Below, piece after piece: positions 1,049 to 33,845 of a DNA stretch of 33,845 bases (positions are counted from its first letter, which is position 1; the number at the start of each line of letters is the position of its first letter). The stretch is from an uncultured Pseudomonadota bacterium (GTDB taxonomy: Bacteria > UBA10199 > GCA-002796325 > 1-14-0-20-49-13). The position numbers were made by a program, and so were the translations under genes. Location: contig CAZYHS010000021.1 of assembly GCA_964647545.1 (NCBI GenBank), positions 1,397 through 35,241 on the forward strand. Reading direction: 5' to 3'. Under the pieces are notes generated by a model that was not told where the DNA came from, ran no database searches, and saw nothing but the letters and a program-made list of their open reading frames with translations.

Positions 1049-1633
1049 ATGTTACCGGAAAAATGCGGCGCGGTAAGCGTCAGCCTGATGAAGAACGAAG
1101 TTAACAACGATGACTATCACGGTCAGATCACACTCAACCGTTGCGCAGTGACATCGCGCTGCGACCTCACCTTTGACGAGGTGGATGATCTTGAACCATT
1201 TAACTGCGTTGATGACGTTATGCTTCGCGGACAAGGGTTTAATAAGGTCGAAGCAGGAGAAGAGTATACGCAGAAAATAAAACGTTTTGTCGGACAGTTT
1301 ATTCAACAGGCAGGCGCAAACATTGGCTCTGCAATTCTTTCCGGTAACTTCAAATCGGGCGAAACATTCCGCGGCGAGTCTGGATATGTCACCTACAACT
1401 TGACCCTGTCATGCTACACAAACAACGCCAGCATCATCACCTACTATTCAAACCTGTTGCCCGACACAGGAAAAGTCGAAAGGCCTGTTTACGGCTACAT
1501 GCAAATTTCAAGTGAAGATGGCGGAAGTCTCGCTAACCTTGTCGATGCAGCATGCGGAGCCGTTGCACTGCAGAGTGCGGCAAGACATGCCCAAACGGCC
1601 ATCAATGCCCTAAAAGAGATCTTCACATTTTAA
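1049..1633 (+). CDS. Hypothetical 194-aa protein with no signal peptide and 7 Cys
   Basis: ATG at 1049 is preceded by ACGGAG. An in-frame TAG at 980-982 means there is no alternative upstream start. It is followed by a clear intrinsic terminator. I recognise no domain. Confidence 0.55.
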   Translation: MLPEKCGAVSVSLMKNEVNNDDYHGQITLNRCAVTSRCDLTFDEVDDLEPFNCVDDVMLRGQGFNKVEAGEEYTQKIKRFVGQFIQQAGANIGSAILSGNFKSGETFRGESGYVTYNLTLSCYTNNASIITYYSNLLPDTGKVERPVYGYMQISSEDGGSLANLVDAACGAVALQSAARHAQTAINALKEIFTF

Positions 1634-1654
1634 ACTTGATCCGATCGTTATAAA

Positions 1655-1690
1655 AAGCCCGCCCTGAAAAATTCAGGTCGGGCTTTTTTG
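1655..1690 (+). terminator. Rho-independent terminator after the 1049-1633 gene
   Basis: AGCCCGCCCTGAA-aaa-TTCAGGTCGGGCT stem with one mismatch, followed by TTTTTTG. Confidence 0.7.
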
Positions 1691-1748
1691 TTCATACTTA
1701 TTTGATATTTGGCCCAAACTATGACTAAGTGCCTTGGATGGAGGCTTC

Positions 1749-2876
1749 ATGAATAAGGTCCTTTTGCTCATAGCGATATTTTTTGTCTCAATTTTCACAA
1801 ATGCCGAGGCAAAACAGCAGCTGCCTCGCGATATGAACGACGCTGCCGACATCCGCAGCTCTATCGAACGTCAAATGCAAGATGCCGCCGTGATGGCCTC
1901 AACCGTAACGCGCGGCAACATCGCCGGCGACATAGCTCCGGCCTCGACCCCCGAAAAAGAGATCGAACGCAGACGGCGGCTGATAAACGGCGCCCACAGC
2001 GATTTCATGAAGCTAAAAGCCGATATGAGCGCCGCCGGTCCTAAATCGAATTATTCGCCTTCGCCGCAAGTGGGAGATAAAAAAGAGGGCGGCATAGCGA
2101 GCGCAAACAACGTCAAAGCCAATGCCGAGTTAGCGGCAGCAATAAGAGATGCGGCCGAACCTCCTAAAGCAATAGCAGTGGAAGGACGCGTAATTATCGA
2201 AGGAGGAGAAGCCGATAAACGCGCGCCAAACAACCAAGACGCCGGAGTGAAATATTCGATCGAAGAACGCTTCGTCGGAAATCTCATCATTGCGCCACCG
2301 GAAACTTCCGAGCAGCCAACTCTTGAAGAGGCCATCGCCGCCGGAACTCTTAAACCCGACGGAGTTGCGTCGGCGTCCGGCGGAAACAAACCTTCCACAG
2401 AATCTTCCGCAAAGTCGGCAAAAAACGCCGGCGGAATTCTTGCTCCCGATTATCAACTCGATACGATATCGACCGGCGTTAAGGTCCTCTCGCTTGGCGG
2501 CGGCGCCTGCGTCCGCTCTAATAGAGGGGGTGACGACGAATGCACTGAAAAAGACCCTTTCGTCACAAGTAAAATCGACAAAGAAAATAAATACGGCAAC
2601 TTTAACGACGGTGTTGTCGCGGCACAGAGAGAAGGAGACACGGTAAAGATCGAAGTCGCCTCCCCCGCCGTCTCTTTTGCGACGGCAATGAAAACAAAGA
2701 CCGCTGAAGTCGGCTGCTCAAACGCCATTTTTGAAATCAAAACCTCTGAATTTAAACAGATGATCGAAAACGGCGGCATGACGATCAGTAGATCATTTAG
2801 CGAAAGCGCACAGTCGGCCTCTTCGTGCCGTCATGGCTCAAAAATAACTCTGCACATGACCGTAAAAAACAAATAG
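1749..2876 (+). CDS. Secreted low-complexity (Ala/Gly/Ser/Lys/Glu-rich) hypothetical protein
   Basis: ATG at 1749 with GGATGGAGG 5 nt upstream. The listed TTG at 1734 is less likely. Signal peptide MNKVLLLIAIFFVSIFTNAEA|K. The rest looks compositionally disordered. The long antisense ORFs inside it (2051-2398, 2130-2456, 2453-2779) are GC/low-complexity artefacts. Confidence 0.6.
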   Translation: MNKVLLLIAIFFVSIFTNAEAKQQLPRDMNDAADIRSSIERQMQDAAVMASTVTRGNIAGDIAPASTPEKEIERRRRLINGAHSDFMKLKADMSAAGPKSNYSPSPQVGDKKEGGIASANNVKANAELAAAIRDAAEPPKAIAVEGRVIIEGGEADKRAPNNQDAGVKYSIEERFVGNLIIAPPETSEQPTLEEAIAAGTLKPDGVASASGGNKPSTESSAKSAKNAGGILAPDYQLDTISTGVKVLSLGGGACVRSNRGGDDECTEKDPFVTSKIDKENKYGNFNDGVVAAQREGDTVKIEVASPAVSFATAMKTKTAEVGCSNAIFEIKTSEFKQMIENGGMTISRSFSESAQSASSCRHGSKITLHMTVKNK

Positions 2877-2912: not shown

Positions 2913-4715
2913 ATGAGGAAACTACTGTTAGCGGCAACGACGGTCCTTTCGTTATTTCTTGCGACAACATCGACGGCAAAGGCAGAAAACATAACGGTCA
3001 CTCTCGACCCGACAACGTTCCCGACAACCGAAGCGTGCGACCCTGAACACTACGCGAACTGCCCGACGCAAACAATGGTGGCTACCCTTGAAGGAACCTA
3101 CGTTGACTTCAGGCACATCATGCGAATTACCGCAGTCTATATCGATTCCCTTGGCGGCTCCATCGCGATCACCGACGATAAATGCTCGGGTCAAAAGCTG
3201 CACATGCTCGGCACCTGCACGATTACAATGAGTTTCCAGCCGTTGCAGCCCGTAAACTATCAGGCAAATCTGGTGATTAATTATTCACTGGGGGCCCTTG
3301 CCGACAGCAAAGTCGTTGCAGTGTCTGGAAGCGGCTACGCCCCTGCCCCGCATCTCTATCCGGCATCGATAAACTTCGGCAAAAAATCTCTCAATTCGGA
3401 AAAAGAATGGCTCTACGTCGAAATTTTAAATCAGGCCCGCACAAGCATTGAAATTAACGACACCATTCTCAACGAACTTTTTTCAAACGAAGCTTTAGGA
3501 GTCGATACAACCTGCAAAGGAAAAGTTCTTGAGCCCGAAGTGATGCCTGCACAGGCATCGTGCGACATGGGAGTAAGTTTCTATCCGACCAACCCGACAA
3601 CGGTCGATCAACAGCTTGAAGGCTATGCGGAAATTTATGTCAACCATCTGCTGGGCGATCAGCAGGTGAACCTTCTCGGTACGGTTATTGCCGCTGACAG
3701 CAAAGATTTAAAAATTTCCGCCGCCGGCCTATACTTCGGCGACCAAACAATCGGAGAAGAGAGCGCAGTCAAGTCATTTACGATCACAAACGTTGGCACG
3801 TTAAACGTAGTAATGGGAGCCATCACCTCGGACGACGCGCAATTTGCGATAACCGACAACGACTGCCCCGGCGTCGGAGTCGAATTGAACCCAGCTGACG
3901 TCTGCACGGTAGAACTCACCTTCACACCCAGCGCACCGGCCGGCTTAAAAACTGCAACGGTCACAATTAATAACGACGCAGAAGACAACCCGCAAACGGT
4001 CGCCCTTCGCGGCAACGCCATTGACCCTGAAAATCCATCGGTCAGCCTCTCTTCGCGCAACCTTGACTTTGGAAATCAGACTGTCGGCATCTCGACAAAA
4101 CAATATGTCACGCTGGTAAATAAAGGCGGAACCAACCTTGTTATCGACACCGTGGAAGTCGAGGGCAACACCCAGCTTACCGTGGCCGAACCCGACACAG
4201 ACTGCGACGGAAACACAATTGCGCCGGAGTCCCGCTGCAAAATCGTAATTGAATACTCGCCGACGGAACCGGCGCCGGCCGAAGCGACAGTTTCAATCAC
4301 AGACAACGCCGACGACTCGCCGCAAACGATAGAGCTGGAAGGAACCGGAACACAGCCAAAAACCCCCGCAGTTCAACTGTCGGCTACAGATATAAATTTC
4401 GGGAATCAGACGATAGACACGTCAAAAACGCAAACGCTAACCGTGACAAACAACGGGACATCGGATTTGCAAATTTCTCTGACGGCTCTGGATGGAACGG
4501 GAGCCGCAAGTTTCAGCAAGCTCGACGGATGTATCGGCACGGTCGTTCAGCCGAACTCGACATGCAAGGTTGGGATATCGTTCTATCCAACCGAGTATCA
4601 AAGTTACAGCGCGACACTAAGCATTGCCGACAACGCCTCTGACAGCCCGCAAAGCGTGACATTAAGAGGCTACGGGGCATCGGCGCCGTCAAGCGGATGC
4701 TCGCTCATACGCTAA
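2913..4715 (+). CDS. Secreted 600-aa surface protein with four tandem choice-of-anchor-D-like repeats, ending in the tail ...SAPSSGCSLIR-COOH
   Basis: ATG at 2913 after a GGGGG run. Signal peptide MRKLLLAATTVLSLFLATTSTAKA|E. It has ~100-aa repeats of the form (L/I)xFGxQT(I/V)...(I/L)TNxGTxxLxI...C...P...C...V.FxP......A.(L/V)xIxxN(A/D)xDxPQ(T/S)(V/I)xLxG. The last six residues are GCSLIR, the same as the protein at 32427. Confidence 0.75.
   Translation: MRKLLLAATTVLSLFLATTSTAKAENITVTLDPTTFPTTEACDPEHYANCPTQTMVATLEGTYVDFRHIMRITAVYIDSLGGSIAITDDKCSGQKLHMLGTCTITMSFQPLQPVNYQANLVINYSLGALADSKVVAVSGSGYAPAPHLYPASINFGKKSLNSEKEWLYVEILNQARTSIEINDTILNELFSNEALGVDTTCKGKVLEPEVMPAQASCDMGVSFYPTNPTTVDQQLEGYAEIYVNHLLGDQQVNLLGTVIAADSKDLKISAAGLYFGDQTIGEESAVKSFTITNVGTLNVVMGAITSDDAQFAITDNDCPGVGVELNPADVCTVELTFTPSAPAGLKTATVTINNDAEDNPQTVALRGNAIDPENPSVSLSSRNLDFGNQTVGISTKQYVTLVNKGGTNLVIDTVEVEGNTQLTVAEPDTDCDGNTIAPESRCKIVIEYSPTEPAPAEATVSITDNADDSPQTIELEGTGTQPKTPAVQLSATDINFGNQTIDTSKTQTLTVTNNGTSDLQISLTALDGTGAASFSKLDGCIGTVVQPNSTCKVGISFYPTEYQSYSATLSIADNASDSPQSVTLRGYGASAPSSGCSLIR
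3367..4680 (+). repeat. Four tandem protein-level repeats (~100 aa each) inside the 2913-4715 CDS, at approximately 3367-3690, 3728-4030, 4058-4350 and 4388-4680
   Basis: Recurring INFG/LYFG/LDFG/INFG starts, paired Cys, and an (S/T)IxDNAxDSPQ(T/S)(I/V) ending. The repeats are diverged at nucleotide level, so this is a domain repeat, not a DNA repeat. Confidence 0.6.
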
Positions 4716-4737
4716 CCAAAAAGAATTCGCCTAAAGC

Positions 4738-4774
4738 AACGCCCGACCTGCGAAGAGTCGGGCGTTGTTTCTTT
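4738..4774 (+). terminator. Intrinsic terminator after the 2913-4715 gene, lying between convergent genes
   Basis: Perfect 10-bp stem AACGCCCGAC / GTCGGGCGTT with a 9-nt loop, then GTTTCTTT. Confidence 0.7.
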
Positions 4775-4814: not shown

Positions 4815-5798
4815 TCAAATTTTAACGGCTATTAAAGCTGCGGCAAACGGCGTAGAATCAAGCTCAATGCGGTTGTAACCGGTGTCTTTCAAAATGCTTC
4901 TCCCCTCAAAAATATATCTCCCGAATCGCCAGCCCCCCGACAGTTTGAATTCAATCTTTTTCTGCAGCCGTACGCTCAAAGATGCGCCGGAGGTCTTTTC
5001 AACGATAAATATCTGCCGGTTTTTTATCGCGCGGCCGGTCCTCCAAAAATGGTCATCGTCCCATTGAAAATAACCCGCCAACCTTAACCATCTTTGAGGA
5101 TTCCAACCGGCGTCAGCATAAAGGCGAATGATAGGGAAATATCGCAAATTGAAATTTAATTTCGAACGCGGCATAAGCTGAACGTTCATTGCAGGAGCCC
5201 CGATAAGCCCCCGCCCCCACTCTCTATTGAAAATATAACCGAACCCCGGAAGCGGCACATGCCTTAGAAAATCGCGATTGCTTGAATAGTTAAGAAAGAA
5301 AGCCCATGCGTCGCCATCTCCGGCCGGAACGAGCAGCGCGGCGTTTCCGGTGAATTCAAGCGTATTGAAATTCGCGAACGGCCGGTTGCTCGAAGAACCG
5401 GCAAGAGCGTTGCCACCTAAGATCCACCCGTTGGAGAATTTGTGACGGAATGCCGGCCCAAAGTTCACGTCACTAAAAATATCTGGGAGCATCCCCCCGC
5501 TTGAAGGGAGAAAAAGGTTGCGCCCCAAAGAGACAAGTTCTCCGGAAACCGCAAAACCGGCCTCGTTTGCGCCGCCATTAAATAGCGGCACATACCCCGC
5601 AAGAGATTCTTTCGTAAGCGATGTCGTCCCCGACGAGGAATCAAAGCGGCCTTCGATGGAGGTTCTCTGCCGCCCGAGCTGCGGGTCTAACAGAACTTCA
5701 TAAGCGTTCATCCCAATGGCAAAGGCTGGATAAAAATTGAGCAGAAAGACGAAGATGAAAAAAACACTTTTGGCGATAGCATTCCTAGGAATTTTCAT
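4815..5798 (-). CDS. Putative outer-membrane or periplasmic protein with a signal peptide. It is the last gene of the HK-RR-OMP operon.
   Basis: ATG at 5798 overlaps the upstream stop in an ATGA junction. N-terminus MKIPRNAIAKSVFFIFVFLLNFYPAFA. It is rich in Gly/Asn/aromatics with alternating hydrophobic residues, suggesting a beta-barrel. The C-terminus ...LIAVKI is not a canonical terminal Phe. Confidence 0.55.
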   Translation of the reverse strand: MKIPRNAIAKSVFFIFVFLLNFYPAFAIGMNAYEVLLDPQLGRQRTSIEGRFDSSSGTTSLTKESLAGYVPLFNGGANEAGFAVSGELVSLGRNLFLPSSGGMLPDIFSDVNFGPAFRHKFSNGWILGGNALAGSSSNRPFANFNTLEFTGNAALLVPAGDGDAWAFFLNYSSNRDFLRHVPLPGFGYIFNREWGRGLIGAPAMNVQLMPRSKLNFNLRYFPIIRLYADAGWNPQRWLRLAGYFQWDDDHFWRTGRAIKNRQIFIVEKTSGASLSVRLQKKIEFKLSGGWRFGRYIFEGRSILKDTGYNRIELDSTPFAAALIAVKI

Positions 5799-6157
5799 GC
5801 AACGAGTTTGTTGATTTTGGAAATGAGCTCTTCTGGATCGTATGGAATGGAGATATAATCTTCCGCTCCGGTCTCTTTTAGAATCTTCTCTTCATCTCCG
5901 GAATTGGCCGAGAACAAAACGACCGGAATATTTTTTAAGCTTAGATTCGATCTCATCTGTTTGCACACATCGTCGCCCCCCATCTCCGGCATCAGAATGT
6001 CAAGCAGCACAAGATCGCACCTGTGTTTTGAAAGCCATTTGAGGGCATCTTCGCCGCTGTAAGCCACGACAGTTTCAAAACCTTCGGCCTCAAGCATGTC
6101 TTTGGTGACCTCGGCGACATCTTCTTCGTCGTTAACTATCAAAATTATTTTTGGCAT
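5795..6157 (-). CDS. Stand-alone response-regulator receiver domain (CheY-like, 120 aa) lacking the conserved Lys
   Basis: ILIVNDEEDV acidic pocket, phospho-acceptor LVLLDILMP, and VVLFSANS. The usual D-Y-[LV]-x-K-P-F motif reads DYISIPYD here. Its start overlaps the kinase gene by 13 nt. Confidence 0.85.
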   Translation of the reverse strand: MPKIILIVNDEEDVAEVTKDMLEAEGFETVVAYSGEDALKWLSKHRCDLVLLDILMPEMGGDDVCKQMRSNLSLKNIPVVLFSANSGDEEKILKETGAEDYISIPYDPEELISKINKLVA

Positions 6158-8157
6158 AACGCTCCTGTTGCTAACGGAAGCTCAAAGTAAAAGACCGTCC
6201 CGCTGCCGAATTTCGATTCTGCCCATATCCTGCCGCCATGCGCAACGATAATATCCTTTGAAATCGCCAGCCCAAGCCCCGTCCCGCCGGGGATACGTTT
6301 TAGCTGTTCGAACTGTTTAAATAGTCTTGGCATATCGGCCTCATTTATTCCCGGGCCGGTGTCGGCGACCGAAACGAGCACGCGGCCATCTTTCATTTCC
6401 GACCTGACCTTTACCGTGCCGCTATCTGTTAGACGAATTGCATTGTTTACAATATTTATCAGAACTTCCGTAATCCTATCTCTATCGAACAGGGCTTTTT
6501 CACAGCCTTCGAATGTTTCACAGGTCATTTCAAGCCCCTTTTTAACTGCAAGCGGCGTCATAGTTTCGCAAACTTCTTTTATGACCTCGTTAATGTCGTT
6601 TGGTAAAATATTGAATTTAATTTTTCCGGACTGAAGGGCCTGATAATCGAGAACCTCGCCAAGCAATCGTGAAAGCCGGTCAACGTTCTTGCGTTCCATA
6701 TCAAGATGCTTCTGCTGCTTCTCATTTATCGGGCCAAGCAACCCCTTTGACATCAGATGAATGCTCTCTTTAATGACCGTTAAAGGCGTTCTCAATTCGT
6801 GGGAGACCATGCTTGTAAATGCCGACTTTGCCTCGAGTGCGCGCTTTAGCTCTTCCTCGGAACTCTTTCTTTCGGTAATATCGAACTCTATTCCATCCCA
6901 CGACGTCGAGCCGTCAGAAAGATACTTTGGAACCGAAACGAAATATGACCACCTCAACGAACCGTCGGGATTGAACATTCTGGCTTCGGTTTTCAAAGGT
7001 CTTTTATCTGCCAGAGCTTCAAGTTCGGCGGCGGCAACCCGCGCTTTGTCGTCCGGATGAACCTTACCGTAAAGGAGTGAAACATCATTCATCATTTCGG
7101 CCGGAGAGACCCCGTAAAATTCCTCCACCTTGCCGCTAACATAAGTGCATTTTCTCTTATCGTCGGGATATCTCACAATCTGGTAAAGCATCGCCTTGTC
7201 GAGGTTATCGCTGATATTTTGCAGCTGCATTTTTTGAAGTTTTAAAGCCTCTTCGGCTTTTTTTCTTTCGGTCACGTCGCGCACTATCGCCTGCAGCACA
7301 TCACCCTCTCCAAGCTCAAGCCTATTTAAACTGACCTCGGCCATGAAAGTTGAGCCGTCCAAACGGCGATGCTGCCATTCGAAAAACTGCGGCGTTCCAG
7401 ACAGCGCAAGGTTCATTTTTTCCATCGCAGATTCTACAGACAATCTGCCGTCAGGCTGCCTTTCGGGAGAAAAACTTTGCGGGGTCGCACCCAATATCTG
7501 CTCGCGCGTGCAGCCATAAACTTCGAGCGTTCGGTCGTTGCATTCTGCGAAGCAATAATTTCTCACGATGAATATAGCGTCATGGGCGGCCTCAAAAAGT
7601 GTTCTGTGTTTGAGTTCACTTTCACGTAGGGACTGCTCGACCATTTTGTGCTCGGTCACGTCGCGAACGATTTCGATAGCGCCGACCCTCTCTCCGCTGT
7701 CATTGTACAGCGGCCCTGCAACCACCCAGAGGTGAGCCCCTTTTCCGCCATGTAAAACGGGATTGAACGACTCGGCCAGAATCGTGTTTTTGCCTCGTCG
7801 CACGTATTTGTATAATTTTTCTATTTCAGGCTGAGGTTTGTCTAAAAGGTCGATGACCATCGGGCGTCTTTGTCCGAAAAAAGGCTCCGCGTAGGCAAAG
7901 TCCCCCTTGCCCAGCAGCTTATCTTTTTTAACGCCGGTCATGATTTCGCAGGCGCGGTTCCACACGACCACACGTTTGGCCTTGTCGATTACAAAAGTTG
8001 CATCCGGAAGAAATTCGACGATATTGAGCAGGCGTTTATAATCAAGAAACTCGGCCTCGGCTAACTTAAGCCCGTGCCGATCACTTTTAAAGCCGCAGAG
8101 CCCTTTCAAAATATTCGCAAGACTCATGACGGTTTTATACACCCGCAATAAGTGCAA
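6145..8157 (-). CDS. Cytoplasmic multi-PAS sensor histidine kinase
   Basis: Several PAS-like segments, an H-box MVSHELRTPLTVIKESIHLM, and HATPase_c motifs (NAIRLT..., DTGPGI, GGTGLGLAI). No transmembrane segment. The listed start at 8157 is a TTG. An ATG at 8127 (MSLANILKG...) is an alternative start. Confidence 0.85.
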   Translation of the reverse strand: MHLLRVYKTVMSLANILKGLCGFKSDRHGLKLAEAEFLDYKRLLNIVEFLPDATFVIDKAKRVVVWNRACEIMTGVKKDKLLGKGDFAYAEPFFGQRRPMVIDLLDKPQPEIEKLYKYVRRGKNTILAESFNPVLHGGKGAHLWVVAGPLYNDSGERVGAIEIVRDVTEHKMVEQSLRESELKHRTLFEAAHDAIFIVRNYCFAECNDRTLEVYGCTREQILGATPQSFSPERQPDGRLSVESAMEKMNLALSGTPQFFEWQHRRLDGSTFMAEVSLNRLELGEGDVLQAIVRDVTERKKAEEALKLQKMQLQNISDNLDKAMLYQIVRYPDDKRKCTYVSGKVEEFYGVSPAEMMNDVSLLYGKVHPDDKARVAAAELEALADKRPLKTEARMFNPDGSLRWSYFVSVPKYLSDGSTSWDGIEFDITERKSSEEELKRALEAKSAFTSMVSHELRTPLTVIKESIHLMSKGLLGPINEKQQKHLDMERKNVDRLSRLLGEVLDYQALQSGKIKFNILPNDINEVIKEVCETMTPLAVKKGLEMTCETFEGCEKALFDRDRITEVLINIVNNAIRLTDSGTVKVRSEMKDGRVLVSVADTGPGINEADMPRLFKQFEQLKRIPGGTGLGLAISKDIIVAHGGRIWAESKFGSGTVFYFELPLATGALCQK

Positions 8158-8219
8158 AACAATCTCATAATACCGGTTTTTAATTTGACTAGAGCGCCCT
8201 GCATGGTTAAATTTGCGGC

Positions 8220-9668
8220 ATGTATTTTATAGCGGCAATAATTCTTATTTCGATCGTCTTGACCGCCAGAGCAGCCAGCAGATGGCGTCTTCCTCTCGTC
8301 GTCATAGCCCTTGCAGCCGGCATAATATTCGGCAGTGACGTCCTCGGGCTTGTCTATTTTGACAATCCCGTCATGGCGAAAAAACTGGCCGACTTTGCTT
8401 TGATATTTGTCCTTTTTGCGGGGGGATTCGGCACAAGGAGAGAACTGCTAAAGCTTGTGTTCGGGCCCGCGATGGCACTTTCGACCTTGGGCGTGATCAT
8501 CACGGCGTTAACGACCGCGGCCCTCTTGTGGCTTGCGATAGGCGGCGGGATAATGCACGCCCTCATGCTTGGAGTCGTGGTCTCTTCGACCGACGCCGCG
8601 GCGGTGTTTTCTATCTTGCGCAGCCGTTCTCTTAACAGGCGTCTATCGGCCATCACAGAAATTGAATCGGCGACGAACGACCCGATGGCAATTTTATTGA
8701 CGGTTGCGGTCGTTCAGTTCGCAGGGGCTCAGCTGCAAAGCCCTGCAAATATCGGACTAATGATAATTTGGCAGCTATTGGCCGGAATAGGCACGGGGCT
8801 GGTCGTCGGCGAAATCGGCGTTTTTTTGTTCAAGCATTTAAAAACGATCGATCGCGGTTTTTTCTATCTCTTTTTAGTCGGAATAATCTTTTTGTCTTAC
8901 GGAGCTGCCGACATAATAGGCGCCAGCGGGATAATTTCGGCCTTCTTCGCCGGTTTTATCCTTGGCGATTCCAAGCTCCCGTATAAAAAGACCATGACGT
9001 CGTTCCTTGAGGCGCTGGCAACGATCGCGAACGTCGGCATTTTCGTTATGTTGGGGTTATTGGCGTTCCCGAAAGAACTCGGCAGCATCTGGAAAGAGGC
9101 CCTGATTCTATTTGCGATTTTAACGTTTATCGCACGGCCGGCCGCGGTTCTCATTTGCACGGCTTTCGGAAGTTTCTCTTTTAAGGATAAACTTTTTATA
9201 AGCTGGAGCGGGCTTCGCGGGGCGGTTCCGATCGTTCTGGCGACCTATCCTTACGCCGCCGGTATCGAGACCTCGCACGATATTTTCAATATCGTATTTC
9301 TTGCCGTTTCGCTCTCAATTGTCGTTCAAGGTTCGACCATCAGCAAACTTGCCGGCTGGCTGAAACTGGTCACAAAATCTAAACCTGCTCCCAGCCAAGT
9401 TATGGAGCTTGTAACTCTCGGCGACAGCGACCTTGAAATGTGCGAAATCCACATCGACGAGGCCCAGTATTCCGGAAGCATCGAAATTGCGTCGCTTAAC
9501 CTGCCGCACGGCACGACAATAACCATGATCAACCGCAACGAGGAGATCATCGCACCGCAGGGCTCCACAAAGATACACCCCGGAGACGTTCTCTATGTGC
9601 TGGTAAAAAGCGACAACATAGACACGGTCAACCTAGAAATTTCAGGAAAACTTATTCCAAAAGCGTAA
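8220..9668 (+). CDS. NhaP-type (CPA1) cation/proton antiporter with a C-terminal TrkA-C (RCK_C) domain
   Basis: A ~380-aa polytopic Na_H_Exchanger-like membrane core, followed by a ...MCEIHIDEAQYSGSIEIASLNLPHGTTITMINRNEEIIAPQGSTKIHPGDVLYV RCK_C domain. Confidence 0.85.
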   Translation: MYFIAAIILISIVLTARAASRWRLPLVVIALAAGIIFGSDVLGLVYFDNPVMAKKLADFALIFVLFAGGFGTRRELLKLVFGPAMALSTLGVIITALTTAALLWLAIGGGIMHALMLGVVVSSTDAAAVFSILRSRSLNRRLSAITEIESATNDPMAILLTVAVVQFAGAQLQSPANIGLMIIWQLLAGIGTGLVVGEIGVFLFKHLKTIDRGFFYLFLVGIIFLSYGAADIIGASGIISAFFAGFILGDSKLPYKKTMTSFLEALATIANVGIFVMLGLLAFPKELGSIWKEALILFAILTFIARPAAVLICTAFGSFSFKDKLFISWSGLRGAVPIVLATYPYAAGIETSHDIFNIVFLAVSLSIVVQGSTISKLAGWLKLVTKSKPAPSQVMELVTLGDSDLEMCEIHIDEAQYSGSIEIASLNLPHGTTITMINRNEEIIAPQGSTKIHPGDVLYVLVKSDNIDTVNLEISGKLIPKA

Positions 9669-9747
9669 TGAGCTTTTTTTGAGTAGCGGCCGGCGCAATA
9701 ATTCTACCGGCTTTACATTCGCTTTAAAATATGATGAATGGCCCGCC

Positions 9748-10299
9748 ATGATAAACGCAACCCAAATTAAGGCAGGCATATTTCTCAGAATTGACGGGGT
9801 TTTCTATCGCGCGCTAAAAGTCGCGCACCTCACCCCCGGCAAAGGAAACGCTCAAATTCAGGCCGACCTGCGCAATTTAAAAACCGGCATAAAAGTAAAC
9901 ATGCGCTTTCGCCCGATGGATTCGGTCGAAAAAATCGACACAAGCGAACGTGAAATGAGCTTTTTGTATCAGGACGGAACGATTTTTCACTTCATGGACC
10001 CAGAAACACACGAACAGATCGAGCTTCACGAAGAGCAAATCGAGGACATGCTCCCGTTTTTGCGCAGCGAGGCAAAAATTCTGATGTTGAGCTTTGAAGG
10101 TGAACCGATAAGCATCCGCCTCCCCGACAAAATGAGCTTCACAGTTGTTTCGTGCGATCCCCCGTCGAAAGGCTCGGCCGGAAATTTAAAAGATGCGACG
10201 GTTGAAACAGGGGCGACATTCAAGGTGCCGATGTTCATCAGACAGGGAGATGTGATCGTCATCAACACGGAAACCGGCGACTACGTTGAGAAAGGTTAG
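9748..10299 (+). CDS. efp: Elongation factor P
   Basis: MINATQIKAGIFLRIDG...TPGKGNAQ...KVPMFIRQGDVIVINTETGDYVEKG aligns along its full length to EF-P. I take the start as the ATG at 9748, not the ORF-track start at 9679. The loop has a Lys (KGN), not the Arg type. Confidence 0.9.
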   Translation: MINATQIKAGIFLRIDGVFYRALKVAHLTPGKGNAQIQADLRNLKTGIKVNMRFRPMDSVEKIDTSEREMSFLYQDGTIFHFMDPETHEQIELHEEQIEDMLPFLRSEAKILMLSFEGEPISIRLPDKMSFTVVSCDPPSKGSAGNLKDATVETGATFKVPMFIRQGDVIVINTETGDYVEKG

Positions 10300-15139: not shown

Positions 15140-16612
15140 TCAGCTCTTTCTGTTCTCCATCACATATTTCACAATGAACGGCCACACGATGGTCGCGTCT
15201 GTCTGAACCGTGGTGAAACGTCCGTTGATGTCCATCTTTCTCCACGTCATGCCTTCGCTGTAGGTACAGCCGGAGAGATGTCCCAAGTTCATCTGGTCGG
15301 GGCAGATCTTCGTGCCGTACCTGAACCGGTTCATCTTAAGGTCCATGCCGATGCGATAGTTCAGTAGTTCGATCTGAGGCGCAATGTTTTGAATGTAATT
15401 ACGCGGCACGCCTCCGCCGATCGTAAAGATGCCGGTGTGATCGACGTTCTGCGAAATATCGATAAGCATGCGCGTGTCAAGCTCGATATCGACGCGAATT
15501 CTTGGCTGCTTATTGATTTCGCGGCGATAGTTGTGGGCGTTAAGATCGTTTCCGATCTCCGAATCGGCAAACGCCGGAACAATGACAGGCACGTTCTTTT
15601 CGAAAGCCGATTTCAAAATCGCGCGATCGTGCGGGAATTTATTTTTGAGATACTCGCCCATCTTCTTATGTACGAACGAAGAGCTGACCGGAGAGCTCGG
15701 GTCGATGCTGTTGAAAATTTCGTCGAGCACCATCTGGATGTGGTTAAGGTTGTCCTCGGGCTCGAGAGTGTCGGTCACTCGGTTCATGAAATTTTCCGTC
15801 AGGAACTTATCGTCGTAACGAGGGTTGTGCTTGTAGTGCTTGAGGCCAACCGACTCGACAAGCCCGTGCGCCATGAGCGCTCCGGTCGAAGCGATGCACT
15901 GCACAAAGCCTTCGTCTATCATATCGCAAATCACGAGCCCCATTTTTGCGATAGTCATCGCCCCCGAAAGAGTGAGAAAAACGTAGCAATCTTTATCCTC
16001 GATCATCGCCTGAACCGTCTTTGAAGCTTCGGCGACCTGAGATGCGACCCCGCCGAATTTAGGAAGTGCGCTAAGCATTTCGGTGGTCGTGGTCTTTTTC
16101 CCTTCGATCATCTCAAGTAGGGAAAAATAAATCAGCGGCATAACGTAACGATGGTCGGCAAAAACCGCGTCGGGGAAAAAGCCGTCCATAACCTGACCGG
16201 GTTTGCAAAGATTTGCGTTGTTTATGAAGATCGCGCGTTCGGGCTTGTTGTAGATCGCGTCTTCGTTCATCTCCGGATAGAGGCCGATAACGACCGCGTG
16301 CTTTTCGGGGGTGGAATTTTCAGAAGCAAATGCTCCGCTTGAAACGACTCTGGTAAAATATCCCCTCTTCACCATGTCGTTTAACAAAACGCCGACCTCA
16401 GAATCGGGCTTTCCGTCATAAATTGCCACAGGGTTCTTTTTGTCCGTTACCCAGCCGCAAATCGTCGAAACGCATTCGCCAAGCATACGGGCGCCGAACG
16501 AACATCGCCCCATCGCGTTTACGATATCGGCAACCGTGTTGCACTTACGCAAATTGAGCTGCTCAAGCGCCTGAAGATCGGGCATATCTGTTTTTGCAAG
16601 TTTTACAGCCAT
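15140..16612 (-). CDS. Deoxyhypusine-synthase-like protein (DHS family, possibly a DHS-like homospermidine synthase), 490 aa with a ~140-aa N-terminal extension
   Basis: CYVFLTLSGAMTIAKMGLVICDMIDEGFVQCIASTGA, NVPVIVPAFADSEIGNDL and IGGGVPRNYI...EGMTWRKM...DATIVWPFIV align to the eukaryotic/archaeal DHS NAD-binding core. The long antisense ORF 15389-16024 is rejected. Confidence 0.75.
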   Translation of the reverse strand: MAVKLAKTDMPDLQALEQLNLRKCNTVADIVNAMGRCSFGARMLGECVSTICGWVTDKKNPVAIYDGKPDSEVGVLLNDMVKRGYFTRVVSSGAFASENSTPEKHAVVIGLYPEMNEDAIYNKPERAIFINNANLCKPGQVMDGFFPDAVFADHRYVMPLIYFSLLEMIEGKKTTTTEMLSALPKFGGVASQVAEASKTVQAMIEDKDCYVFLTLSGAMTIAKMGLVICDMIDEGFVQCIASTGALMAHGLVESVGLKHYKHNPRYDDKFLTENFMNRVTDTLEPEDNLNHIQMVLDEIFNSIDPSSPVSSSFVHKKMGEYLKNKFPHDRAILKSAFEKNVPVIVPAFADSEIGNDLNAHNYRREINKQPRIRVDIELDTRMLIDISQNVDHTGIFTIGGGVPRNYIQNIAPQIELLNYRIGMDLKMNRFRYGTKICPDQMNLGHLSGCTYSEGMTWRKMDINGRFTTVQTDATIVWPFIVKYVMENRKS

Positions 16613-19371: not shown

Positions 19372-21333
19372 TTATTCGTACCTTAATGCTTCGACCGGGT
19401 CAAGCTCCGCGGCAGTGCGGGCCGGCCACATTCCGAAAATAAGCCCGACTGCAATTGAAAAGAACGTCGCAAGAAGAATAGAAAATAAAGATATCTTCAC
19501 GGCCCAACCGGCGGCAATTGAAAGGACCGCCGCCCCCGCCACTCCGACAACGACACCAATCACTCCGCCCGAAAATGTAAGGACCACCGATTCTATCAGA
19601 AACTGGGTCATAACGTCGATGTATCTAGCTCCGACAGCTTTTCTCAATCCTATTTCACGCGTCCTCTCGGTGACCGACACGAGCATGATATTCATGATCC
19701 CCATACCGCCTACGACGAGCGAAATTGCAGCGATAAATCCCAGCAGAAGCGTCATTGTCCTTGTCGTGCTTTCAAGCGTGCTCTGCAGATCGGCCATATT
19801 TCTTATCTGAAATGTCTTTTCGGAATCGGGGGGAAGACGTCGGCGCTTTTTTATAAGAGCCGATATTTCATCTTCGGCGGCGCTCATGAGCGCGGCATCT
19901 TTGACCTCGACGTCTATCGTATCGACATAATCGCGACCGAGCACCCGATACATCGCGGTGGTCACCGGAATAAGAACGATGTCATCTTCGTCTCTCATCA
20001 TCGAAGCCCCCTTGGCCGGCAGCACTCCGATAACCTGAAAGTTCGAACGATTTATTTTGATCCAATTGCCGATAGGATTGGCATCTCCAAAAAGCTCCCT
20101 TACGACCGTCGCGCCTATCACAGCGACACGCTTTCTGATTCTGGCTTCTTCTTCGGTAAAAAATCTGCCGGCCACCGGAACTGACGCCCGCATCTCGGCG
20201 TATGAGGTCCCGACTCCTTGAACCTGAGAATTCCAGTTTTTATTTTCAAAGACGAGCTGCCCTCTCCCCCTGACCGAAGGAGAGACCCGTCGTACGGCAA
20301 AAAGTTTCGCCATTTCGTCGGCATCGTCCATTGTAAATCTTGTGACCGAACCCGACTCCAAAGCCACGCCGTGCAAACGCTGCGAGCCGGGCATCACCAT
20401 AAGAAGATTGGAGCCCAAAGACGCGAGCCTGTCACGCACCGACTCTCTAGCCCCCTGCCCAAGAGCAAGCATCGCAATGACCGCAGCCACGCCTATCAAT
20501 ATTCCGAGAATGGATAGAGCCGAACGAAGTTTGTGGGACGAAATAGCCCAAAACGCCTGTTTGACGTGGTCCAAAAATTCGGCCTCTTTCATCCCCGACC
20601 TAGCCTGTGAAATAACCCGTTCGGCCGAAACATTGTCGGCATCTTTTCCGGCCTCTCCGACGGGCGCAAAACGCTCATCCGAAACTATTTTTCCGTCGCG
20701 CATGCGGATAATTCTTTTCGCATGTCTTGCAACGTCATCTTCGTGGGTGACCATAACTATGGTCTTCCCCTCGCCGTTGAGTTTTTTCAAAAGAGCGATT
20801 ATTTCGTTTTGATTTTTTGAATCGAGGTTGCCGGTCGGCTCGTCGGCAAGAATCAACACCGGATCGTTCACAAGAGATCTTGCGATGGCGATACGCTGCT
20901 GCTCACCGCCGGAAAGCTCGTTGGGCCTATGCCGAGCCCTATTTGAAAGACCGACGCGGGCAAGCATCTCCTGAGCTCTTTCTTTAAGATGTTTGCGTCC
21001 TGAATAGATAAGCGGCAGCTCGATGTTGTCAAGGGCTGTGACCTTCGGAAGCAAATGAAACTGCTGAAAGATAAAACCGATCAACCCGTTTCGCAAGACC
21101 GCCAGCTTTTCGTCGGGAAGCCCAGTTACGCTCCCTTTGCCGAGCAGATACTCTCCGCTGTCGGGTCGGTCAAGCAAGCCGATAATGTGCATGAGAGTCG
21201 ATTTACCGGAGCCCGACGGCCCCATAATGGCCACGAAATCGCCGGCATCGACCTTGAGCGACACGCCGTCCAAAGCCTTCACCGAAGCGGTGCCGACGCC
21301 ATGGATCTTTTTTATGTCGGTAAGACTGATCAT
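19372..21333 (-). CDS. macB: MacB-type ABC transporter (fused N-terminal ATPase plus FtsX-like permease)
   Basis: Walker [18 protein letters not shown], and a C-terminal 4-TM FtsX permease with a large periplasmic domain. Start taken as the ATG at 21333 (MISLTDIKK...). The ORF-track GTG at 21393 lies inside the upstream gene. Confidence 0.9.
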
Positions 21334-21334
21334 T

Positions 21335-22303
21335 TTATCTGGAACGCGGGCCCGTCGGCAGAAATGGATTTGACCCGTTCTTTTTTGTTTCACGCTGATA
21401 TTTTTGGACCGTCATTATGACCTTGTCTCCCTCCGAAAGCCCCGACAAAATCTCGCAGTTTCTCTCGTCGCAAAGCCCGCTTGTCACGGCGCGTCTTGCG
21501 GGTTCTTTACCCAGCCCGCGGCTTAGCTCCACGAACTCGCCTTCACTATCGCGTTTGACGGCGTCGATAGGAAGCGTCAAAACGTTCTCTCTGCTATTTT
21601 CGACGATCTCGATAGTTGCGCTCATGCCCGATCTGAAAACCTCTGGGACGGAATCGGGGGCGATGTAAACCTCGTAGGTTGTGACGTTATTTACGACCTT
21701 TGACTCGTAGGAGACATGTTCGACCACACCGGCAACATCGACCTCGGGGTATGCGTCAAGTCCCACTTTTGCTCTTTGTCCAATTCTTACCCTGCCGATG
21801 TCCGTCTCATCGACCTGAGCTTTAACGATAAGATGGTCTGAAATAACTATCACCGCCTCGTTCACCGTTACCGTCTGCCCCGGCTGATCGGTGCTGACGA
21901 TAACCTCACCGTTGATAGGCGCGATAAGCGGCGTCGGTTTGTAAGCGTCGCTCCAGTACTCCCACTCGTCTTTTCCCTTTGAACGGGCGGCGTCCAAAAT
22001 GGCCGCACGTTCTGTCGAGCTCATCCAAGCAACGATCTGACCTTCTTTAACGTAGTCGCCCTCTCTCACCAGAATTCGTTCGATCCGGCCCGCAACCGGA
22101 GGTTTCACTTCCAAGCGATTTTCGGGTTCAACGGCACCTGTGGCCGTCACCGATATTTTTATATGGCCTGCCGCCGGAGAAACCTCCATGAGGTTTCCGT
22201 CGGTCGAATCCCCGCCAAAAAGAAATAACGCCGCGACAACAATGCCCGCAAATATAATTAAGCCCGTCAACGCGAAGATTTTTTTATTTTTTATCGCTGT
22301 CAT
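21335..22303 (-). CDS. macA: Periplasmic adaptor/membrane-fusion protein (HlyD/MacA family)
   Basis: N-terminal TM anchor, a biotinyl-lipoyl-like beta-barrel with alpha-hairpin segments. Start at the ATG at 22303 with AAAGGGGGGA upstream. Its stop is 1 nt from the macB start. Confidence 0.8.
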   Translation of the reverse strand: MTAIKNKKIFALTGLIIFAGIVVAALFLFGGDSTDGNLMEVSPAAGHIKISVTATGAVEPENRLEVKPPVAGRIERILVREGDYVKEGQIVAWMSSTERAAILDAARSKGKDEWEYWSDAYKPTPLIAPINGEVIVSTDQPGQTVTVNEAVIVISDHLIVKAQVDETDIGRVRIGQRAKVGLDAYPEVDVAGVVEHVSYESKVVNNVTTYEVYIAPDSVPEVFRSGMSATIEIVENSRENVLTLPIDAVKRDSEGEFVELSRGLGKEPARRAVTSGLCDERNCEILSGLSEGDKVIMTVQKYQRETKKNGSNPFLPTGPRSR

Positions 22304-23618
22304 ATTCAAGCGTCCCCCCTTTTGCCTGAACCCACGCGGCCTCAGCCTCAAGAGCCGCGATCTGCGAGTTTATGTAGGCGGTCTTTGCGTTGACCAGATT
22401 ATCTTCGATGATGATCCAGTTGTCGAAAAGTATAAGACCGTTGGAATATTGCGCGTCGGCAATTTTGGCGCGCGTTTGTGTGGCTTCAAGATATTGCCGC
22501 TGCACGTTGACGTTCTGAATGGCGTCTTTAAGGCGCGACCAAGTATCTGTCAGATTGACAATGATTTCGTCCTTACCGCTTCTTTCGACCGCCTTAGCCT
22601 GCTCAAGTGCGGCGCGGGCTTTATCGACCTGTGCCTTGGTTAACCCGCCTTGAAATATCGGGACCGAAAGATCCAATCCGGCGACCCATTGAGATTTGTT
22701 TGGAGGCCAGCTTGAGTTCGCCTGACCATAGCCGGCGCTGGCCGTTACCTGCGGAAGATACGACGCCTTTGCCGCTTTCAAACTCATGTCGGCCGCTTCA
22801 CGCTGGGCTATGCGTTCCTTGAGAAACGGATTTGAATCGGCGACCTTATAAAAATCGGGTTGTCTTGAAGGGAAATCACTTACGGAAAAATTGCCGGTGG
22901 CGCGAACCGGCGAAAAAAATCTCCGTCCCATGGCTTTGACAAGTTTTTGCTGAGCACGGAGCAGACTGCTGTTTGCGACCTCAAACTGCAATTGAGCCTT
23001 TGCGACGTCGGCTTCGGCGGTCATGAGAGAACCTTTATGTTCGCGTCCGCCTTGATATCTCAACCTCACCAGACCGAGATTATATTTTCTTCGCTTAATG
23101 ATATCTTCGGTGACCTTTACCGACTCCTGCGCGCCGAGCAATTCGGCGTATGCGTTGCGCAGCGCCAATCTGACGTCCGAAGAGACAACATCGAAATTAA
23201 AGCGCGCCGCGTTGACGGTTTTTTGCGCGGACGAAATATCGAACGCAGTTTTAAATCCGTCGAACAAAAGCTGGTTTCCGGTGACGCTGTAATCGTAATT
23301 ATTGGAAGTCGCCGACGTGGCAGACTTTCCGCGGGAAGCACCCGCGTTTCCGGTTATCTGCGGCAGAATTGCGCTGGTGGTTATCGCCTTTGATGCGCGG
23401 GCCTCACCAAGTTTCTGCTGGGCGGCGATAAGCTGAGGCTGGTTTTGTAACGCCTCTCTTACGCATTCTTCCCAAGTCAGAACTTCGACCGACGACAAGT
23501 TGGCAGAATCGCCACCGTTTGTCGCTTCGAAATTCGCGCTTTCGGCAGACGCAAAGCCGCAGAAAAAAAGACACAAGACAGTAACCGCTGATATGACTTT
23601 TGCTGTAAGCCTGAACAT
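22284..23618 (-). CDS. TolC-like outer-membrane efflux protein
   Basis: Signal peptide MFRLTAKVISAVTVLCLFFCGFASA, then two OEP repeats. Start taken at 23618, not 23696. It overlaps the macA start by 20 nt. Confidence 0.8.
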   Translation of the reverse strand: MFRLTAKVISAVTVLCLFFCGFASAESANFEATNGGDSANLSSVEVLTWEECVREALQNQPQLIAAQQKLGEARASKAITTSAILPQITGNAGASRGKSATSATSNNYDYSVTGNQLLFDGFKTAFDISSAQKTVNAARFNFDVVSSDVRLALRNAYAELLGAQESVKVTEDIIKRRKYNLGLVRLRYQGGREHKGSLMTAEADVAKAQLQFEVANSSLLRAQQKLVKAMGRRFFSPVRATGNFSVSDFPSRQPDFYKVADSNPFLKERIAQREAADMSLKAAKASYLPQVTASAGYGQANSSWPPNKSQWVAGLDLSVPIFQGGLTKAQVDKARAALEQAKAVERSGKDEIIVNLTDTWSRLKDAIQNVNVQRQYLEATQTRAKIADAQYSNGLILFDNWIIIEDNLVNAKTAYINSQIAALEAEAAWVQAKGGTLEYDSDKK

Positions 23619-23622
23619 AAGC

Positions 23623-32368: not shown

Positions 32369-32406
32369 ACAAAAAAGGGCAAATCAATTAAAATTGATTT
32401 GCCCTT
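32369..32406 (-). terminator. Intrinsic terminator of the Cys-rich secreted protein gene
   Basis: Near-perfect palindrome AAGGGCAAATCAATT-aa-AATTGATTTGCCCTT. On the minus-strand transcript it is followed by a TTTTTT run. Confidence 0.75.
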
Positions 32407-32426
32407 TGCGATAACAAATAAGTCCG

Positions 32427-33845
32427 TCACCTTATCAAGGAACACCCAAAACCAGACTTTCCTCCGCTTGTCGGACCGACATAATAGAGCGGCATAATAT
32501 TGTAGGCCGCCTCGTTATTTCCAACCGCGTTGCTGACCCGCATATATTCGTCCCACGGATAGATCTCGTTGGCGTCGCGCATTGCCTTAGAGAAATTGGG
32601 GATCTTAATGTTGGCCGGCTGCTTGGCAAGAGCCTCGGCAAACGCGTCGAGGAAAAGGTTTGGATCGAGGTTGCGAACGGTCGAAGCCTGCGCCGGCGGA
32701 GCATAGAACTGCCCGACGTCAAGCCCTGCGCGTCCGATCACTTCGATTATCAAGTCTTTTTGTTCGTCCGTCCCGTAAGGAGAATATTCCGCCCCGACAT
32801 AGCCCATGCTCGCCTTAAAAGCTCCGGCAGCGGCATCGTTACTGGGCCTTACTTTGACCATCATGTAGGGCTCGGACTCGCTCTTTCCTATCGAAACGCT
32901 AAACGAACCGTTGGAGCTCGATAGCGACGGGGTCAAGCTGGTGTTCACAAACTGCCGCTTGGCGGCTTTAACAATGGACGGGAGAAAATCTGTCGCGATG
33001 TTGGTGGCAAGAATTGCCTTGCCGGTAGAAGACTGAGCTCCGGTCCCCGAAACCGCAAACAGGCGAGTTGCCGTATTGGTCAGATAGGTCTTGCGGGACA
33101 TCTTGTTGCCGTCCGGTAGATCGATCTCCTCGGGAAGCTGTCCGGCACGGAAGCCGTCTTCGCCGTAGAAGTCGGGCCCGATGGGGAAACCGCTTATCTG
33201 CCACACGCCTAAATTATCGGCCGGCGGCTGCACACATTTGAACGAGTAAACTCCGAGCTCGCCGACGAAAATATCGCGCGGGTTCTTTTCAGGATCGCAA
33301 ACTCCTCCGCGCTTCACAACTTCTTTACAGTAGATCTCGCTGGAACGGCGGTTCAATAACCGAACGTAATTATCGTAATCTGTCCCGACCGCCCAGTCGC
33401 CGACCGCGGGCCGCCCGTTCTTACCGACCAGCAGAACACAATCTCCGCTCACGCCTGCAACGGTTTCGCACTTGTCGGCAACGCCGTTTCCGTTGGTGTC
33501 GAAGAAATCCTGCGGATTCGGACACGCGCTTCCGCGCATGACATAATCGTCGCATGTGCAATCGACCGGAGGGGGAGGAATTACGGTGACACAATTTGCA
33601 TATTCGCCGGTGACAGGGTCTTGCGGGCCAAGCGCTGTCGGGTCGCATGGACCTGGGCCTTTAACCGTCTCGCAAGTGCAGACCGGCAATTTGGTCTCCA
33701 CACAAACAGATGAGTCAAAGTTTTCGCAGCCTGCGATTCTATCATGATTAATGCAGTTACAGGTGATTTTTGATTCTATGCAATTTTCATATTTACCCAA
33801 ACGTGGATAGTATGTGCCCAGAGGAGTTACATCGCACTTGTTCGG
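32427..33845 (-). CDS. Cys-rich secreted surface protein. It is partial, with the N-terminus beyond the right edge, and ends in the tail ...SGGKSGFGCSLIR-COOH.
   Basis: The frame is open to the window edge. The listed M at 33800 is a TTG inside the ORF. More than 25 Cys in the first ~200 aa are spaced as in EGF or Cys-knot modules. A thrombospondin-type-3-like Ca-binding stretch DTNGNGVADKCE is present. The terminal GCSLIR is identical to that of the 2913-4715 protein. Confidence 0.65.
   Translation of the reverse strand, partial: PNKCDVTPLGTYYPRLGKYENCIESKITCNCINHDRIAGCENFDSSVCVETKLPVCTCETVKGPGPCDPTALGPQDPVTGEYANCVTVIPPPPVDCTCDDYVMRGSACPNPQDFFDTNGNGVADKCETVAGVSGDCVLLVGKNGRPAVGDWAVGTDYDNYVRLLNRRSSEIYCKEVVKRGGVCDPEKNPRDIFVGELGVYSFKCVQPPADNLGVWQISGFPIGPDFYGEDGFRAGQLPEEIDLPDGNKMSRKTYLTNTATRLFAVSGTGAQSSTGKAILATNIATDFLPSIVKAAKRQFVNTSLTPSLSSSNGSFSVSIGKSESEPYMMVKVRPSNDAAAGAFKASMGYVGAEYSPYGTDEQKDLIIEVIGRAGLDVGQFYAPPAQASTVRNLDPNLFLDAFAEALAKQPANIKIPNFSKAMRDANEIYPWDEYMRVSNAVGNNEAAYNIMPLYYVGPTSGGKSGFGCSLIR

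Follow-up and report, generated by a model that had tools for sequence, protein, structure and literature searches.

Cysteine-containing C-terminal sorting signals were linked in silico to proteases of the CPBP family in 2023 (Haft, bioRxiv 10.1101/2023.06.07.544157), and an experimental link was added for the myxosortase MrtX in 2025 (Guo, Haft and Wall, PMC11980579). An invariant Cys is required in this signal class (PMC11980579; bioRxiv 10.1101/2023.06.07.544157). C-terminal cleavage by a CPBP protease has been shown by experiment for MrtX acting on TraA, also in E. coli (PMC11980579); lipidation of the Cys before cleavage, and a cut just distal to the Cys, are predicted (PMC11980579; bioRxiv 10.1101/2023.06.07.544157). 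One protease superfamily handles both these long signals and the short CaaX box, and multi-client sorting enzymes such as MrtX are typically not encoded beside their clients (bioRxiv 10.1101/2023.06.07.544157). Here a much shorter C-terminus is compared with these signals. It consists of the hexapeptide Gly-Cys-Ser-Leu-Ile-Arg followed directly by a stop codon (the GCSLIR tail), and is carried by two proteins, protein 1 and protein 2, encoded in a stretch of DNA from an uncultured bacterium (contig CAZYHS010000021.1). This stretch, analysed over its full length of 33,845 nucleotides, is referred to as the window.

The GCSLIR tail and its conservation

The tail is real and under selection, and it is common to two exported proteins that are unrelated otherwise. 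It had been pointed out in an earlier note on this DNA, and re-translation gave GCSLIR followed by a stop in both proteins, as claimed there. Protein 1 (plus strand) ends ...RGYGASAPSSGCSLIR, also written ...GASAPSSGCSLIR, and protein 2, from the minus-strand open reading frame (ORF) ending at 32427, ends ...GPTSGGKSGFGCSLIR, also written ...TSGGKSGFGCSLIR (coordinates in Table 1). The tail codons were read exactly as in the earlier note, GGA TGC TCG CTC ATA CGC TAA for protein 1 and GGG TGT TCC TTG ATA AGG TGA for protein 2. Five of the six codons differ, all synonymously, with Ile encoded by ATA in both; the flanking DNA is unrelated, and the two proteins have no similarity to each other outside the tail. 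The view that conservation is at the peptide level, and not that of a recent DNA duplication, is borne out by these differences. The same note placed the invariant Cys four residues from the C-terminus. It does lie near the end but is the fifth residue from it, with four residues following. The tail was also described as having no hydrophobic helix, and none is present in it or encoded downstream of either stop.

No further ORF of the window ends in GCSLIR. The chance that any two of approximately 30 genes have an identical C-terminal hexapeptide is about 2e-5. As a rough control, 5550 ORFs (80 codons or longer) were taken from 1.2 Mb of DNA, namely 80 PurD loci from other phyla together with four short loci from the lineage studied here. 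Tails comparable to GCSLIR were seen on the protein 1 orthologues in L001-L004 and on no other ORF. In simulation, E-values of at least 1e3 were expected for a motif-only profile against a database of 5.8 billion proteins. A scan of metagenomes with a narrowed DNA pattern gave at least 120 matches; among those listed there was a single long in-frame match (L178), and the known JGI copy was absent. L178 encodes an unrelated protein of cytoplasmic appearance and looks like a chance match.

Orthologues of protein 1 with 96% (P0001, JGI), 83% (P0002, two ENA assemblies) and 53% identity (P0003, JGI) all end in GCSLIR. The same tail is found on the protein 2 orthologue, which is present on two JGI contigs (L085 and L086), is at least 1081 residues long and is identical at 431 of 472 residues (91%). 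The tail is thus kept by the orthologues of both proteins, and the position of the stop codon is not strain-specific but fixed across the lineage, as the earlier proposal of a shared tag would have it. The linker ahead of the tail varies in length and sequence (GASAPSS in the window and in P0002, VNSSSGGG in P0003), and the residues right before CSLIR are PSSG in P0001 and P0002 and GGGG in P0003. Between them, the protein 1 orthologues and protein 2 use four distinct sets of tail codons, with synonymous variation at each codon (Ser TCG/TCA/AGC/TCC; Leu CTC/CTT/CTG/TTG; Arg CGC/CGT/AGA/AGG). Because change across the four codon sets is synonymous only while the linker diverges, both the tail peptide and the position of its stop are under purifying selection.

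The same tails are present in independent JGI and ENA metagenome assemblies, and the neighbouring genes are present in a Logan (SRA-run) assembly. Terminator-like hairpins follow both stops (Table 1); a simple terminator scan flagged neither. No hydrophobic stretch is encoded within 200 nt downstream in any frame, in the window or in related contigs. Readthrough or frameshift into a hidden membrane anchor was excluded, because hairpins follow both stops and no hydrophobic frame lies downstream.

Protein 1 scored 201.9 bits over four stretches against the choice-of-anchor D model NF012200 (cut-off 45) and also matches the Pfam domains Cep192_D4, HYDIN/VesB Ig-like and ASH. A positive start, a hydrophobic core and an A-K-A motif were read by eye from the translation of its signal peptide. 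Cys596, in the tail, is the 13th Cys of the protein. The other 12 form six close pairs within the Ig-like domains, which probably leaves this odd Cys available for modification.

For protein 2 no Pfam or NCBIfam match was obtained, and word-index searches with this protein and with its 1081-residue L085 orthologue returned no homologue. A full HMMER scan found three remote homologues (P0142, P0143 and P0144). P0142, from a groundwater metagenome, is a full-length TSP3-repeat protein of 2051 residues (PF02412). The TSP3-like nature assigned earlier to protein 2 is therefore supported indirectly, through this homologue, and not by a match of protein 2 itself to either collection.

Comparison with described sorting signals

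The closest likeness is to JDVT-CTERM. In both cases the signal lies at the extreme C-terminus of exported choice-of-anchor D proteins, right after a Gly-rich linker, and has a single Cys followed by similar residues (GCS-I-A-R in JDVT-CTERM, GCS-L-I-R in the tail). The C-termini SSGCSLIR, GGGGCSLIR and GFGCSLIR, each followed by the stop, align with the GGGCSIARG of proteins whose JDVT-CTERM scores exceed the cut-off. JDVT-CTERM differs in having a near-invariant Asp-Pro approximately 9 residues past the Cys, whereas the tail ends 4 residues past it, and in having a transmembrane segment and an Arg-rich cluster, whereas the tail has no helix and one Arg. JDVT-CTERM clients adjoin the MrtJ gene and usually occur once per genome; here no MrtJ gene is adjacent and two clients lie within 34 kb. 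No ORF matching PF02517 or resembling MrtJ was found in the window or in the lineage loci.

MYXO-CTERM (TIGR03901, formerly GC_trans_RRR; myxosortases MrtX, MrtC and MrtP) resembles the tail in its Gly-Cys on large adhesin-like surface proteins, in having several unrelated clients per genome and in a sorting enzyme that is not encoded beside the clients. It comprises a Cys motif (often GCGC), a helix and an Arg cluster, whereas the tail has Gly-Cys only, and neither TIGR03901 nor any other NCBIfam model matched the tail. MYXO-CTERM is reported in Myxococcota and Bradymonadales only, whereas PurD of the source organism is at most 58% identical to that of genomes from several phyla; among 185,579 species genomes, the best matches, at 58%, were metagenome-assembled genomes labelled Thermodesulfobacteriota, Myxococcales and Nitrospina. 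A search of these 185,579 genomes returned no orthologue of protein 1.

The eukaryotic CaaX box is likewise a very short C-terminal Cys tag in which aliphatic residues follow the Cys and a membrane helix is lacking, and its protease Rce1 and the Mrt enzymes both belong to the CPBP family (bioRxiv 10.1101/2023.06.07.544157). The tail differs from it in that the Cys is at position -5 (C-S-L-I-R) and not -4, and in that protein 1 is Sec-exported, whereas the CaaX box belongs to cytosolic proteins that are prenylated. A strict CaaX box was rejected on the position and spacing of the Cys. An extended C(x)3X form of the CaaX box is also processed by Rce1, and the tail has this C-x3-X length. Since the proteins are Sec-exported, any modification of the tail must take place outside the cytoplasm; we know of no bacterial prenyl- or acyltransferase for such a tag.

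The N-terminal lipobox ([LVI][ASTVI][GAS]C; Lgt/LspA) shares with the tail a small residue (Gly) before an invariant Cys and the removal of the peptide on one side. The lipobox Cys is lipidated, and the tail Cys may be; for MYXO-CTERM, lipidation by Lgt has been proposed (PMC11980579). The tail differs in being C-terminal, with no adjacent hydrophobic region, no Leu at -3 and inverted polarity, and a lipobox of the N-terminal type was rejected on the position and spacing of the Cys.

The NCBIfam and Pfam models for PEP-CTERM, LPXTG, GlyGly-CTERM, the type IX secretion system C-terminal domain, Synerg-CTERM and CGP-CTERM matched neither protein. In the literature searched there was no paper on 'GCSLIR', and no helix-less member of the JDVT/MYXO class was described.

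Full signals on distant homologues

In homologues of protein 1 with 41% identity or less, GCSLIR is replaced at the C-terminus by a Cys motif followed by a hydrophobic helix and an Arg cluster. Of these, P0012, P0017, P0027, P0029 and P0031 scored 38-45 bits against the JDVT-CTERM model NF033191 (cut-off 27); a second client gene in L210 is above the cut-off too. When sequences are aligned on the Cys after the Gly-rich linker, these members read GGGCSIA[RQ]G-x4-DP-helix-RRR or GGGCSMIDG...DP-helix-RRR, and the window lineage has SSGCSLIR or GGGGCSLIR and the stop at the same position. The gene for P0017 in L209 directly follows a MrtJ gene (NF033192, 76.9 bits, cut-off 75). The protein 1 family is a genuine client of the JDVT-CTERM/MrtJ system.

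In L209 (7531-15951) the client gene is followed by genes for a TlpA-like thioredoxin, DUF4266, DUF3570, ApbE and DsbD, a neighbourhood of a type already described for JDVT-CTERM clients (bioRxiv 10.1101/2023.06.07.544157). In L210 (8001-16878) two tandem JDVT-CTERM clients are followed by TlpA-like thioredoxin, DUF4266, DUF3570 and DsbD genes, with no ApbE gene; no CPBP gene lies within 8 kb upstream of these clients. Relatives of TlpA, DUF4266, DUF3570, ApbE and DsbD were not found among the neighbours in the window and the lineage loci.

The C-termini of P0142 and P0143, the remote homologues of protein 2, read ...GCGRCSL[ND]GRE-helix-RRR(R), including a CSLNGRE form with RRRR, and resemble MYXO-CTERM in their two-Cys GCGRC motif, helix and RRRR. 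When the L085 orthologue was compared with P0142 by BLASTP, the N- and C-terminal domains aligned, right up to GFGCSL of the former and GCGRCSL of the latter. Because position matches and sequence is similar in two unrelated families, the tail is most simply read as the Cys signature motif of a JDVT/MYXO-type tripartite signal, truncated behind its first basic residue. An identical, lineage-specific CSLIR was reached in both families, where the homologues read CSIARG and CSLNGRE.

The third remote homologue, P0144 (L214:105-851, ENA ERZ4903137), is similar to the C-terminal domain of protein 2 and also has no membrane helix. It ends ...APTAGCSCTECR, and its TGA stop overlaps the start of the next ORF. 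Because P0144 is helix-less too, helix-less Cys tails may have arisen more than once.

These comparisons alter part of what the earlier note had concluded. It did not recognise the tail from described sorting systems and saw a candidate new tag, a view that is not supported, as the tail aligns with the GCSIAR motif of JDVT-CTERM and with the GCGRCSL motif of the protein 2 homologues. Its 'choice of anchor' reasoning is supported, since the C-terminal sorting signals of distant homologues occupy precisely the position of the tail. Long C-terminal extensions, which it would have counted against a tag, do occur in distant homologues (41% identity or less) and in none of the orthologues; they explain the origin of the tail and do not point to a strain-specific stop.

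Proposed processing and alternatives

We propose that GCSLIR is a functional, lineage-specific tag descended from the JDVT-CTERM/MYXO-CTERM class, which would have kept the signature motif only: the Gly-rich linker, Cys, Ser, two aliphatic residues and Arg are retained, and the DP motif, transmembrane helix and Arg cluster are lost. Both proteins would be exported by Sec, as read from the signal peptide of protein 1 and presumed for protein 2. The flexible linker would then present the tail at the periplasmic face of the inner membrane, where the unpaired Cys would be modified, most likely lipidated, by a separate enzyme. By analogy with the described systems, a CPBP/Rce1-like intramembrane protease encoded elsewhere would trim the four residues SLIR. 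The mature protein would stay on the cell surface through its new C-terminal Cys, in a process like that of the eukaryotic CaaX box, but outside the cytoplasm. The chances that export, Cys modification and CPBP-type removal of SLIR lead in this way to a C-terminally anchored surface protein are judged to be about even. That the tail would be the first bacterial CaaX-like sorting signal acting outside the cytoplasm, with the Cys motif alone enough for lipidation and CPBP trimming, is suggested tentatively and is on balance doubtful.

Several points weigh against such processing. The likeness of GCSLIR to GCSIAR extends over six residues, resting on position and context with no significant score. 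NF033191, with its cut-off of 27 bits, matched neither the full proteins (E up to 1) nor the 30-residue tails (E up to 10). No CPBP/Rce1-like or other candidate processing enzyme was found in the 34-kb window and related lineage loci, and only two client families with GCSLIR are known in the sequence available. To our knowledge, all described members of the class depend on a membrane helix that keeps the precursor membrane-bound, and we know of no bacterial enzyme that modifies the C-terminal Cys of a soluble periplasmic protein. Even for MYXO-CTERM, lipidation is a prediction (PMC11980579).

The unpaired 13th Cys of protein 1 would also suit a disulfide tether or oligomerisation handle. The tail would then be neither cleaved nor lipidated, and its free Cys would bond to a partner or to another tail-bearing protein, holding adhesins at the surface. 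Thiol-disulfide oxidoreductase genes (TlpA-like, DsbD) beside the JDVT-type homologues in L209 and L210 are in keeping with this, as is the lack of a processing enzyme near either tail gene. A disulfide would, however, constrain the Cys alone, and not six residues and a stop position that are kept by orthologues at 53% identity and by two unrelated proteins. The neighbouring outer-membrane-like protein of 327 residues has no Cys, and neither a TlpA nor a DsbD gene was found in the window; we regard this explanation as unlikely. Recognition by machinery other than CPBP, for example a periplasmic C-terminal-binding transpeptidase, a peptidase or a secretion adaptor, with the JDVT likeness an inherited remnant that has been reused, is also considered improbable. 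What has been kept coincides exactly with the signature next to the Cys in signals that CPBP proteases process, in two independent families, and the enzymes of multi-client systems such as MrtX are not beside their clients either. What speaks for it is that the tail has lost the DP motif, helix and Arg cluster, the features thought to interact with the intramembrane protease; that no CPBP gene is nearby, while JDVT clients normally adjoin MrtJ; and that there are at least two clients here against typically one per genome for JDVT.

Distant homologues carry the full-length signal, and released client forms are known for TraA and VesB (PMC11980579), so the tails could be non-functional remnants left where nonsense mutations cut ancestral tripartite signals, the proteins being simply released. 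This would need truncation of two unrelated genes at the same residue and convergence on an identical CSLIR, while the homologues read CSIARG and CSLNGRE. It would also have to account for a tail that is unchanged at 53% protein identity while its six codons have changed synonymously and the linker has diverged, and is thought very improbable. For chance, a recent duplication of DNA or an artefact of assembly or readthrough, the shortness of the motif is the only argument. The probability of about 2e-5, the five of six differing codons with unrelated flanks, the agreement of independent JGI and ENA assemblies, and the hairpins after both stops with no helix downstream leave such readings next to no credence.

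A naturally helix-less version of the signal bears on Cys modification, on the cleavage site and on the role of the membrane helix. If the proposed processing is true, G-C-S-aliphatic-aliphatic-R would be the minimal recognition element, would show where enzymes of the Mrt family probably recognise and cut their substrates, and would provide a simple peptide substrate for biochemistry. A tag of about CaaX length would then serve bacteria outside the cytoplasm, as an evolutionary intermediate in form that links the tripartite Cys signals of prokaryotes with the CaaX box of eukaryotes. Six-residue tags escape current hidden Markov models, so the surface proteomes of uncultured lineages may be under-annotated.

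Features and neighbouring genes

Table 1. Features of the two tail-bearing genes in the window.
Feature	Position	Strand	Basis or remarks
Protein 1, exported, 600 residues, four choice-of-anchor D repeats	2913..4715	+	translation, NF012200, Pfam
Sec signal peptide of protein 1 (MRKLLLAATTVLSLFLATTSTAKA/E, probable cleavage before E25)	2913..2984	+	read from translation
Gly/Ser/Ala/Pro-rich linker ahead of the tail	4678..4694	+	the start coordinate of the earlier note lies here
Tail copy 1, G-C-S-L-I-R (Cys596)	4695..4712, stop TAA 4713-4715	+	translation
Terminator-like hairpin with U-rich run, approximately 20 nt past the protein 1 stop	4734..4770	+	-27.4 kcal/mol, z = -5.6, 0/200 shuffles as good
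Terminator-like hairpin with U-run, after protein 2	32374..32407	-	-20.9 kcal/mol, z = -4.8, 0/200 shuffles as good
Tail copy 2, G-C-S-L-I-R	32430..32447, stop TGA 32427-32429	-	translation
Protein 2, last 472 codons of the gene for a large, Cys-rich surface protein	32427..33845, gene runs off the window end	-	translation

Two genes (194 and 380 residues) with no Pfam match (1049-2876, plus strand) immediately precede the protein 1 gene on its own strand and may be in an operon with it. The 380-residue product has a signal peptide, and its gene is kept upstream of the orthologues in L001 and L002; the 194-residue gene is kept upstream in L001, and L002 is too short to tell. A gene converging on protein 1 (4815-5798, minus strand) encodes the 327-residue protein mentioned above. 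This carries a signal peptide, lacks Cys and is rich in Gly and aromatic residues, as is typical of beta-barrels, and has the look of an outer-membrane protein; no Pfam match to it and no detectable similarity to DUF3570 were found. It is directly followed on the minus strand by genes for a response regulator and a multi-PAS histidine kinase (5795-8157).

On the groundwater contig L212, the gene for the 2051-residue homologue of protein 2 is followed by a 507-residue TSP3-repeat paralogue (7183-8706) with a signal peptide and no C-terminal sorting signal.

In the strain with 96% identity in protein 1, genes for a chromate transporter and an FGE-sulfatase-domain protein (L001:11347-13406) lie between the Na+/H+ exchanger and elongation factor P genes. 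They are missing at 9668-9679 of the window, so that the two strains differ here by a small insertion or deletion. The elongation factor P gene of the window (9679-10299, plus strand) lies approximately 5 kb from a deoxyhypusine synthase-like gene (15140-16612, minus strand; PF01916, 490 residues with an N-terminal extension of approximately 180 residues), and this proximity hints at an unusual pathway of elongation factor P modification in the lineage. Further along (19372-23696, minus strand), an operon for efflux or export encodes a MacB-type ABC transporter, an HlyD-family adaptor and a TolC-like outer-membrane factor. Its called ORFs overlap at 21335-21393 and 22284-22351, which suggests that the start codons were called too far upstream.

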